Shown here piece by piece: positions 42,580-43,737 of a stretch of DNA of 64,000 bases. The DNA is from Clostridium sp. CAG:710. Lineage in GTDB: Bacteria > Bacillota_I > Bacilli_A > RF39 > UBA660. The notes under the pieces are model-generated. The model saw only the letters and a list, made by a program, of their open reading frames with translations, was not told the origin of the DNA and searched no databases. Position 1 is the stretch's first letter; every line of letters begins with the position of its first letter. Where the stretch lies: NCBI GenBank assembly GCA_000432595.1, contig HF996867.1:1551-65550 (forward strand), written 5' to 3'. A program made the translations under genes and the position numbers.

Positions 42580-43737
42580 ATGCGTAAGGTTAATAGTAAA
42601 AGTATTATTGTTATAGCAACAATTATATCTTATTTAATTTTATCTTGTCTTCTCCTAATAAATAAATTTAGTAATACTTACAATAGTATAATAAATCCCA
42701 TGTTTTGGATTTTGCTTGCTGTAGTATGTTTTATTTTATTTAGGAATGAATATGTTAATAAAAAATTTAGACTTGATATCTTACAGACAGTAATTATAAC
42801 GGTAGTAGGATATTTTATATTTTATTATATATTAGGATTTATTGTTGGATTCCAAGATACACCTTATTCTAGTGGAATTAAGGCAATATTTAAAAATATT
42901 TGGAATTTTGGAATAATAATAATTTTCCAAGAATATGTAAGACAAGTTTTAGTTAATAGAAGTGGAAGAAGTAAAGCTCTAATAGTTATAATAACAATAC
43001 TATTTACATTTGTAGATATTACAAGAATACTAACTATATCAAAAATTGATAGTGGTGCGAAATTATTTCAAACTTTCGTTATAACTATTAACCCTGCAAT
43101 AGCAAGAAGTATGCTTTTAACATATCTAACATATAAAGCTGATTTCTTACCATCGCTAGCATATAAAATTCCGCTAATAATATATTCTTTTATAGTTCCT
43201 TTTATACCAAACCTAAACTGGTTTTTATTAGGAGTAATTGACTTGCTTTTACCATTTGTAGTTTTTGCAAGAGTATATAGACTACTATATAAAAGGGAAA
43301 AAGTAGAAACAAATAGAAAGAAATATAAAGGAATGTTAGCATATACTCCAATATTTATAGTACTGATTATCTTAGTAATACTTGTATCCGGAGCATTTAA
43401 ATACCAATTGATTGCAATTGCATCTAACTCTATGAACCCTGCATTCTATAGGGGAGATGCTGTAATATTAAAAAAGGTAGATAAAGAGGAAAGGAAAAAT
43501 ATAAAAGTAGGAGAAGTAATTGTATATAATTCTGATGGAGCATATATCGTACATAGAGTCATTGAAAAGAAAGAAACAATGACGGGTGCATATCTTTATA
43601 AAACTAAAGGTGATAATAATAATGCACCAGATACTAAGCTAGTAGAAGCTAGCCAAATAGTTGGAAAGTTTACAATAGGAATTAAATACATAGGTTATCC
43701 AACAGTAATGCTACAAGAAGCATTAGCAAGAAGATAA
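42580..43737 (+). CDS. SipW-type (archaeal/ER-type S26) signal peptidase I fused to N-terminal ~270-aa polytopic membrane domain
   Basis: C-terminal IAIASNSMNPAFYRGDAVIL (SxSMxP catalytic Ser), IVHRVI (His) and TKGDNNNAPD (KGDNN) motifs; N-terminal region has ~8 hydrophobic helices and no His. Confidence 0.65.
   Translation: MRKVNSKSIIVIATIISYLILSCLLLINKFSNTYNSIINPMFWILLAVVCFILFRNEYVNKKFRLDILQTVIITVVGYFIFYYILGFIVGFQDTPYSSGIKAIFKNIWNFGIIIIFQEYVRQVLVNRSGRSKALIVIITILFTFVDITRILTISKIDSGAKLFQTFVITINPAIARSMLLTYLTYKADFLPSLAYKIPLIIYSFIVPFIPNLNWFLLGVIDLLLPFVVFARVYRLLYKREKVETNRKKYKGMLAYTPIFIVLIILVILVSGAFKYQLIAIASNSMNPAFYRGDAVILKKVDKEERKNIKVGEVIVYNSDGAYIVHRVIEKKETMTGAYLYKTKGDNNNAPDTKLVEASQIVGKFTIGIKYIGYPTVMLQEALARR

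Follow-up and report, generated by a model that had tools for sequence, protein, structure and literature searches.

Why would a signal peptidase that seems to serve one kind of extracellular fibre carry eight further membrane helices in the same polypeptide chain? The question was raised by a gene in a 64,000-nucleotide stretch of DNA of Clostridium sp. CAG:710 (NCBI GenBank assembly GCA_000432595.1, contig HF996867.1, positions 1,551 to 65,550 of the forward strand), the whole of which was analysed and is called the window below. The gene codes for 385 amino acids (aa), and an original prediction had described its product as a SipW-like signal peptidase (SPase) fused to a polytopic membrane domain. 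We consider it fairly probable that the enzyme is a dedicated type-I SPase of an AbpX-type fibre system, with a built-in CPBP-like docking scaffold that would confine cleavage to the fibre subunits.

The C-terminal domain is an SPase I of the endoplasmic reticulum (ER)/archaeal type (MEROPS S26B, the SipW/Sec11 type) with a complete Ser-His-Asp site. It matched the NCBIfam model TIGR02228 (sigpep_I_arch) over aa 258-381 with 101.5 bits (cut-off 51.85) and the Pfam model PF10502 with 27.2 bits (cut-off 22.9). The three catalytic boxes named in the original prediction were all located in this domain (SNSMNP, aa 282-287; VHRV, aa 324-327; KGDNN, aa 343-347). They supply the residues that define the type, namely the Ser of SxSMxP, a His in the HR box, and not a Lys, as the base, and the Asp of GDNxxxD. 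In an alignment of 250 homologues, which was also used to score conservation in the N-terminal domain, S284, M285, H325, R326, D345 and D351 were 100% conserved.

Among solved structures the top Foldseek matches of the full-length model were human SEC11C/A (7p2q_A and 7p2p_A, with E-values of 5.5e-6 and 3e-5, 27-28% identity and TM(target) 0.58-0.60), followed by the pilus-associated SipA of S. pyogenes. On the other hand, the equivalog model of B. subtilis SipW, NF046067 (189 positions), scored 69.2 bits against its cut-off of 190 and covered aa 258-376 only. The protein is about twice as long as canonical SipW, for which the original prediction had given ~190 aa.

The first ~250 residues of the protein are strongly hydrophobic. 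In the full-length AlphaFold2 model (predicted local distance difference test, pLDDT, 84.8; predicted template modelling score, pTM, 0.72) eight helices lie within aa 6-240 and a ninth helix anchors the peptidase domain; the transmembrane (TM) count is nine, plus a short C-terminal helix. The predicted fusion to a polytopic domain is therefore borne out by the model. Basic residues are concentrated at the N-terminus and in the loops 54-64, 127-132 and 238-250. From the nine helices and the basic clusters we infer that the N-terminus is cytoplasmic and that the peptidase domain stands outside on helix 9, as an SPase needs. With this topology, G86, G90 and P207/P210 would be situated at the outer face of the membrane, while E118 and R121 would be situated towards the cytoplasmic half of helix 4.

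The N-terminal domain has neither a His nor a recognised family, in agreement with the original prediction. H325 is the sole His of the protein, with none in the N-terminal 260 aa, and no Pfam or NCBIfam model matched the domain, searched either within the whole protein or as the isolated ~250 aa with E up to 10. PF02517, the CPBP model, matched none of 24 family members (E up to 10), and a sequence-profile search of the PDB with the N-terminal domain gave chance matches to PsbI only. The hhalign comparisons of the N-terminal domain profile with MmRce1 alone (its sequence recovered from the PDB with a synthetic CPBP consensus) and with a 22-sequence alignment of the MmRce1 family returned a probability of 0.1-0.3%; the Rce1 profile used here was shallow, since its homologues were all 65-72% identical and thus of low diversity. 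No native CPBP gene was found in the window or in 82 related loci, which had been gathered with the full-length SPase alignment.

The absence of His had been taken in the original prediction as an argument against a CPBP/CAAX protease. The argument proved valid for catalysis only, as the predicted fold is CPBP-like. The model of the N-terminal domain, predicted from a 24-sequence alignment (pLDDT 88, pTM 0.84), consists of eight long helices, and SpdC and Rce1 ranked first in its Foldseek search (TM-score 0.53, probability 0.95-0.97), with the remaining matches all having a TM-score ≤0.35. In the model, the eight helices thus adopt the CPBP (Rce1/SpdC/APH-1) fold.

In Rce1 the carrier of motif 1 is helix 4, and E118 and R121 are located on helix 4 as well; by helix order and spacing, E118-x-x-R121 is likely a remnant of CPBP motif 1 (EExxxR). 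Position 117 is a Glu in 26 of the 250 homologues, and the spacing of E118 and R121 is one residue shorter than in EExxxR. Certain family members have FEELIR or FEEITR here, which is near the FEELGWRG of Rce1. Position 146, four residues after F142, falls where catalytic CPBPs have the His of motif 2 (FxxxH); it is D, E or N in 198 of the 250 homologues, with S as a further residue seen, and His is outside its seven commonest residues. Motif 3 (HxxxN/D) was not found, no helix column among the 250 homologues had more than 10% His, and the only such column in the N-terminal domain was the loop position 98. In the model, the outer loop with P207 and P210 pairs with aa 91-93 as a short beta bridge.

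Both catalytic His of CPBPs are missing from the domain and a near-invariant Glu-x-x-Arg is retained. As judged from the alignment, this degenerate pattern is the one found in non-catalytic CPBP proteins from Staphylococcus aureus. Two of them, SpdC and LnsB, have degenerate CPBP motifs and act non-catalytically. A third one, the degenerate CPBP protein SpbR, with motifs HELYMR, FIYLD and QIVAI, binds the TM helix and the extracellular domain of the SPase SpsB and modulates what this enzyme cleaves; SpbR is an inhibitor acting on many SpsB substrates, and mutation of its Glu/Arg had no effect (PMC12260438).

We also considered the exosortase/archaeosortase family, which has eight TM helices and a Cys-Arg-His site. 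It was rejected, as the N-terminal domain has no conserved Cys or His, with Cys23 and Cys50 falling outside the columns with at least 85% conservation.

Is the fusion a stable one? A search of 5.8 billion proteins produced 429 homologues; nearly all of the 120 homologues listed were 375-395 aa long and aligned over the full query, at 33-100% identity. The profile of the N-terminal domain, run against 1.84 billion cluster representatives (50% identity clusters), matched 1,638 clusters with E ≤1e-3, of which 413 had E ≤1e-30, and its best 150 matches were almost all ~380 aa long. For 249 homologues, the identities of the N-terminal and C-terminal halves to the window protein were correlated with r = 0.95, which indicates that the two halves evolved as a single unit. 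Among the GTDB species representatives, the protein is present in numerous bins of uncultured gut Bacilli, 'Tenericutes' and Clostridia. An identical protein is present in the NCBI assembly GCA_037318155.1 and in Logan contigs.

The idea that the long open reading frame (ORF) is an artefact, with two genes merged by a lost stop codon or a frameshift, could draw on the few short proteins in the databases that have the N-terminal domain only. The hundreds of full-length homologues from independent assemblies, 33-100% identical, refute it, and we give it practically no weight. The split copy that we examined told the same story. The short protein P0139 (Logan contig L083:3001-4097) comes from a locus called as two genes, of 264 aa and 101 aa, and what separates them is one frameshift within an A/T-rich run; directly after the frameshift, the +2 frame restores ...LVSGVFRYQILAIASNSMN... 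This case demonstrates that gene callers can yield false 'split' versions in the SPase-fusion family. Eight other proteins of short or odd length were fetched, several of which stop abruptly or finish in non-homologous residues, like fragments or frameshifted copies. The fusion is thus conserved in relatives, and the lost stop codon that the original prediction had named as a possible refutation is not what we observed.

Two further observations were made in these searches. In the protein P0249 (463 aa), the N-terminal domain and helix 9 are followed by the first part of the SPase box (IAIGSDSMKPS) and then by unrelated peptidoglycan-binding- or regulator-like sequence; an assembly chimera or a disrupted gene could account for this. 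In the window itself, the hidden Markov model (HMM) of the N-terminal domain weakly matched a 250-aa ORF at 7900-8649 (+) with an E-value of 5e-5 over the first 64 profile positions only, probably due to the hydrophobic composition of TM helices.

A recent preprint has already reported an SPase I with ten TM helices together with DUF5305 at AbpX loci (bioRxiv 10.64898/2026.01.04.697558, 2026). In the same work DUF5305, which in some cases is fused to SPase I, is viewed as a probable accessory protein of the SPase, and AbpX-like minor and tip subunits are listed for the AbpX loci. The preprint assigns neither fold nor function to the N-terminal domain; a text search found no CPBP, CAAX or Rce1 in it, and no further information on the enzyme came from the supplement. 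Literature searches beyond the preprint produced no further description of the enzyme. With regard to the other refutation that the original prediction had proposed, a common and described extension of SipW, the extension is common (1,638 clusters) and was briefly noted in the preprint; the fold of the domain was not described there.

The archaeal enzyme adjoining abpX in Pyrodictium abyssi (WP_338249487.1, 380 aa, L084:5876-7018 in AP028907.1) provides a distant comparison. It has no DUF5305 gene beside it. Its peptidase half is 30% identical to that of the window protein, and BLASTP aligned this half only. The N-terminal domains are ~18% identical, and the HMM of the family N-terminal domain gave no match to the archaeal protein. 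In the family alignment, P. abyssi SPase has the same residues at G86, G90, E118, R121, P207 and P210, with N at 146. It reads GxxxGF-32-ExxR-88-PxxP, where the window protein has 32 and 89 residues between the motifs. Given this shared signature and the shared layout, the window protein is a bacterial member of the kind of AbpX-locus SPase described in the preprint. The architecture then spans both bacteria and archaea, with the relation of the N-terminal domains appearing as a match in architecture and in motifs and their spacing. What is new here is the fold assignment of the N-terminal domain, the residue signature common with the archaeal enzyme and the SpbR-SpsB parallel.

The coordinates of the gene, of its domains and motifs and of the neighbouring features are collected in Table 1.

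Table 1. Features of the SPase locus and its surroundings. Positions are those of the window, and percentages refer to the 250 aligned homologues.
Feature	Position	Strand	Remark
Best promoter-like site of the region, TTTACA-18-TATAAT with TG, 11/12	41876..41905	+	Before the pilin gene; consensus match only
AbpX-type (TasA-superfamily) pilin by profile match, 178-aa secreted beta-protein	41978..42514	+	Upstream of the SPase gene
Shine-Dalgarno sequence AGGAGG	42569..42574	+	ATG 5 nt further on
Whole gene, predicted CPBP-fold membrane domain fused to ER/archaeal-type signal peptidase I, 385 aa	42580..43737	+	ATG start; stop codon included
N-terminal 8-helix domain, aa 1-240, predicted CPBP/Rce1/SpdC-like fold	42580..43299	+	N-terminus predicted to be cytoplasmic
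G86-x3-G90, outer end of helix 3	42835..42849	+	G86 100%, G90 96%
N106, helix 4			94%
E118-Y-V-R121, helix 4	42931..42942	+	E118 99%, R121 100%
F142-T-F-V-D146, helix 5	43003..43017	+	F142 74%
F163, helix 6			91%
Y182, helix 6			92%
P207-F-I-P210, outer loop between helices 7 and 8	43198..43209	+	P207 99%, P210 98%
Basic cytoplasmic linker, aa 241-250, and ninth TM helix, aa ~251-272	43300..43395	+	Peptidase anchor; AlphaFold2 helix 243-270
SPase I catalytic domain, aa ~273-385	43396..43734	+	Predicted to be outside the membrane
Codon of S284	43429-31	+	Catalytic/conserved residue
Codon of H325	43552-4	+	Catalytic/conserved residue
Codon of D345	43612-4	+	Catalytic/conserved residue
Codon of D351	43630-2	+	Catalytic/conserved residue
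DUF5305 membrane protein	43745..44836	+	69 bits; downstream of the SPase gene
530-aa protein with AbpX-like domain, aa 20-172, and C-terminal GLUG region	44936..46528	+	E 4e-20 for the AbpX-like domain
Polytopic sensor histidine kinase, 416 aa	49975-51225	+	Directly before the second pilin gene
Second AbpX-like pilin paralogue, 168 aa	51288..51794	+	Pilin profile E 2.4e-35; ...VAVGYF/VLIRSVVIEGK (/ = cut)

Besides the fold of the domain, the neighbourhood of the gene carries information on its role. The SPase gene is number two of four co-directional genes. A DUF5305 homologue adjoined the SPase gene in 78 of the 82 related loci, nearly always directly downstream, and a homologue of the 178-aa pilin was near it in 70 loci, usually just upstream. 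As a single sequence the 178-aa pilin had no match in the PDB. The profile of 26 pilin homologues, however, matched the structures of P. abyssi AbpX (9sj2_C with E 1.1e-6 and 9rhp_A with E 1.3e-5). The same profile matched TasA faintly only, and Peptidase_M73 was matched weakly by four of the 26 homologues only. The AbpX matches place the small neighbour proteins in the TasA superfamily of donor-strand fibres, as members of the AbpX type, and they support the link to TasA-like fibres that had been drawn in the original prediction.

The N-termini of the pilins are remarkably alike, and the cleavage region is conserved and unusually specific. They begin with a basic n-region and a hydrophobic helix ending in M-x-V-G-Y/F-A, and continue with A-L/F-x-x-x-L-x-I-x-G-x-A; the cleavage region aligns with that of the AbpX precursor, ...IGLTYA/QWSETLSLSATIS (here and below, the slash is the cut). 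The cut in the 178-aa pilin was predicted as SIGFA27/A28LSSQLTINANATIS. The new N-terminus produced by this cleavage is predicted to be the donor strand, whose second residue (L, F or Y in these pilins) is the counterpart of W2, the aromatic 'clamp' of AbpX. The 530-aa GLUG protein has a pilin-like signal and donor strand as well, LGYS/VLVQKLEIMGNATI, with a complete pilin domain before the GLUG region.

Several neighbours can be assigned putative roles. The 178-aa pilin is presumed to be the main substrate of the SPase, and DUF5305 its accessory subunit. The GLUG protein is a candidate tip, adhesin or minor fibre subunit and a candidate second substrate. The 168-aa pilin, which is encoded ~5 kb downstream of the SPase operon, is a possible third substrate. 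By the likeness of their signals, the window likely encodes at least three substrates of the enzyme.

Two other genes border the operon. Just upstream, at 40867-41808 (+), a protein of 313 aa has one N-terminal TM helix and a long low-complexity region rich in Pro, Val, Thr and Gln; among the 82 loci it is confined to L001-L003, which are of the same species, and is absent from the 79 others, which are more distant. Convergent to the operon end, at 46599-46838 (-), is a gene for a 79-aa regulator of the XRE/HTH_3 type, a candidate local regulator that is retained in L001-L003.

How could the two domains work together? Dedicated SPases are needed for the maturation of TasA-type and Tafi subunits; for example, processing of the Tafi subunit TafA depends on the dedicated SPase TafD. 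Mature AbpX polymerises in vitro by donor-strand complementation without a chaperone, with calcium present. In the explanation that we favour, the peptidase domain would be carried on helix 9 outside the membrane, and its cleavage after the conserved Ala (M-x-V-G-Y/F-A) would expose the donor strand, by which the fibre then polymerises. The CPBP-like domain would be a non-catalytic scaffold that packs against helix 9, fixes the height of the active site above the membrane and probably supplies a place within the membrane where the cognate signal peptide docks from the side. As a result, only the fibre subunits would be cleaved, by restriction or gating, and the cleavage might also be timed; DUF5305 would complete the complex as one more subunit. 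By analogy, this would be a cis version of the trans partnerships of SpbR with SpsB and SpdC with SagB in S. aureus, and of APH-1 in gamma-secretase.

Several points count against this explanation. The Foldseek E-values for SpdC and Rce1 (0.26-0.36) are not significant on their own, and the CPBP relationship is one of fold only, as the Pfam, PDB-profile and hhalign sequence searches all came back empty. The equivalence of E118 with motif 1 and of F142/D146 with motif 2 was derived from helix order and spacing, not from superposition, and the ExxR pair is spaced i+3 compared to i+4 between the second Glu and the Arg of EExxxR. A buried Glu/Arg pair that is near-invariant is conserved beyond the strict need of a pure scaffold. 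Finally, SpbR inhibits its SPase, so the direction of the effect of the N-terminal domain is not given by the analogy.

The Glu/Arg pair could also be given a more active role. It is possible, though doubtful in our judgement, that the eight-helix domain is no passive scaffold but a working part of a minimal single-chain SPase complex common to archaea and bacteria, in which the near-invariant Glu118/Arg121 pocket would recognise the signal peptide of the fibre subunits within the membrane and then gate SPase cleavage or dispose of the cleaved peptide in a His-independent manner. If true, CPBP-fold proteins would be general partners of SPases, in trans in S. aureus and in cis here and in Pyrodictium. 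We find it unlikely that the domain is an active intramembrane protease, a His-independent CPBP that uses E118, so that the chain would hold two proteases; the SPase would then cut the pilin at the outer face, and the CPBP-like domain, in the manner of a signal-peptide peptidase, would cleave or clear the leftover signal peptide, or else re-trim the substrate. The 99-100% conservation of E118 and R121 on the motif-1 helix 4, the acidic or amide residue at 146, the ExxR retained in the highly divergent P. abyssi protein and the FEELIR/FEEITR of some members, near the FEELGWRG of Rce1, are what one would expect in this case, and active bacterial CPBP proteases that work on the termini of secreted proteins do exist (e.g., MroQ and myxosortase). 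All 250 members, however, lack both catalytic His and the Asn/Asp of motif 3. The tested CPBPs of like degeneracy (SpdC, SpbR and LnsB) are non-catalytic, including SpbR with its insensitivity to Glu/Arg mutation, and the predicted topology puts the Glu near the cytoplasmic leaflet, far from the SPase site.

The effect of the domain could also be negative. SpbR inhibits SpsB by attaching directly to the TM helix and the extracellular domain of that enzyme, and the domain fused here could be an SpbR in cis, an auto-inhibitory or regulatory module that governs timing, not selection, and is relieved by substrate load, DUF5305, calcium or membrane state. AbpX polymerises spontaneously once the donor strand is free and calcium is present, so that early cleavage could do harm; two-component and cyclic di-GMP genes often flank AbpX loci, and the window has a histidine kinase gene next to the second pilin gene. 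Still, a permanently fused inhibitor would be an odd design for a dedicated enzyme, and no switch is visible in the protein sequence. This explanation largely overlaps with that of a docking scaffold, from which it differs in the sign and timing of the effect only, and we hold it to be distinctly unlikely. The original prediction had proposed a membrane platform coupled to substrate recognition, translocation or anchoring of the fibre, a role similar to that of TapA in Bacillus. A membrane platform for the enzyme is indeed the best reading of the data, while the TapA-like part, in which the domain would be a channel or a fibre-base anchor for translocation, polymerisation or anchoring, received little support and appears very improbable. 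The conserved fusion, the absence in P. abyssi of any other accessory gene adjoining abpX and the conserved G86, G90, P207 and P210 at the outer face would agree with it. On the other hand, the pilins carry ordinary Sec-type signal peptides, AbpX polymerises in vitro without a chaperone, TapA has no similarity to the N-terminal domain, and candidate anchors or tips are encoded separately (the GLUG protein here, SLH or LPXTG proteins elsewhere). To our knowledge, the CPBP fold has no role as a channel, and no CPBP-fold protein is known as one.

The docking scaffold, if correct, matters beyond this locus. Donor-strand fibres of the TasA/AbpX type are emerging as a matrix system common to bacteria and archaea, and the freeing of the donor strand is an obvious control point for the assembly of fibres in this superfamily. 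A CPBP-fold pseudo-protease in the chain of the peptidase would join two lines of work, one on the AbpX/Tafi loci with DUF5305 and the other on SpbR-type tuning of SPases. With at least 1,600 clusters at 50% identity, the family is a large one, and many of the uncultured low-GC Bacilli and Clostridia of the gut carry it. For readers of the AbpX preprint the enzyme itself will be no surprise; it does offer a handle on how TM helices tune a Sec11-type SPase, and bears on how TM helices added around such enzymes set substrate selectivity, as in the eukaryotic signal peptidase complex (SPC). The residues E118, R121, G86/G90 and P207/P210 are testable, and so is the substrate motif MxVGYA/A.

The closest of the known systems are the 'ten-TM' SPases of the AbpX loci, which are also ~380 aa long, combine a polytopic N-terminus with TIGR02228 and are encoded next to an AbpX-type pilin, often together with DUF5305 and AbpX-like minor or tip subunits, as in the window. 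The TM count is ten in the preprint, compared to nine plus the short C-terminal helix here. B. subtilis SipW and Sec11 share with the window SPase the ER-type Ser-His(-Asp) site and the SxSMxP, HR and GDNN boxes. SipW is also a dedicated enzyme encoded beside fibre genes of the TasA superfamily (TasA/TapA). In contrast, SipW has ~190 aa and lacks the eight-helix domain, whereas the window locus has pilins without the TasA/camelysin-type signal and has no TapA.

For the N-terminal domain, the nearest parallel is SpbR, which is likewise a His-less membrane protein of the CPBP fold with an SPase I as a partner, and whose motifs HELYMR and FIYLD resemble in style the QEYVR and FTFVD of the window protein. 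Unlike the window protein, SpbR and SpsB are two separate proteins, and SpsB is a housekeeping SPase of the P-type (Ser-Lys). The pair SpdC-SagB is an example of a degenerate CPBP protein that acts as a scaffold, holding the single TM helix and the outer domain of its partner. Non-catalytic scaffolds of the CPBP fold also include APH-1 of gamma-secretase and TMEM147. In the SpdC-SagB, APH-1, TMEM147 and LnsB systems the partners (glucosaminidase, presenilin, acyltransferase) are bound non-covalently, while in the window protein the partner is fused. The Rce1/CPBP proteases (PF02517) differ from the N-terminal domain in having the His of FxxxH and HxxxN/D and another spacing of motif 1, and have no profile similarity to it.

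Finally, the eukaryotic SPC and the SPase-DUF5305 fusions/TafD-TafG resemble the window system in that a Sec11-type subunit is joined by additional TM helices and by an accessory protein whose outer part is a beta-sandwich (DUF5305). While the SPC draws its extra helices from SPC12, SPC25 and SPC22/23, the window protein takes them not from homologues of these subunits but from a predicted CPBP-fold domain of the same chain.

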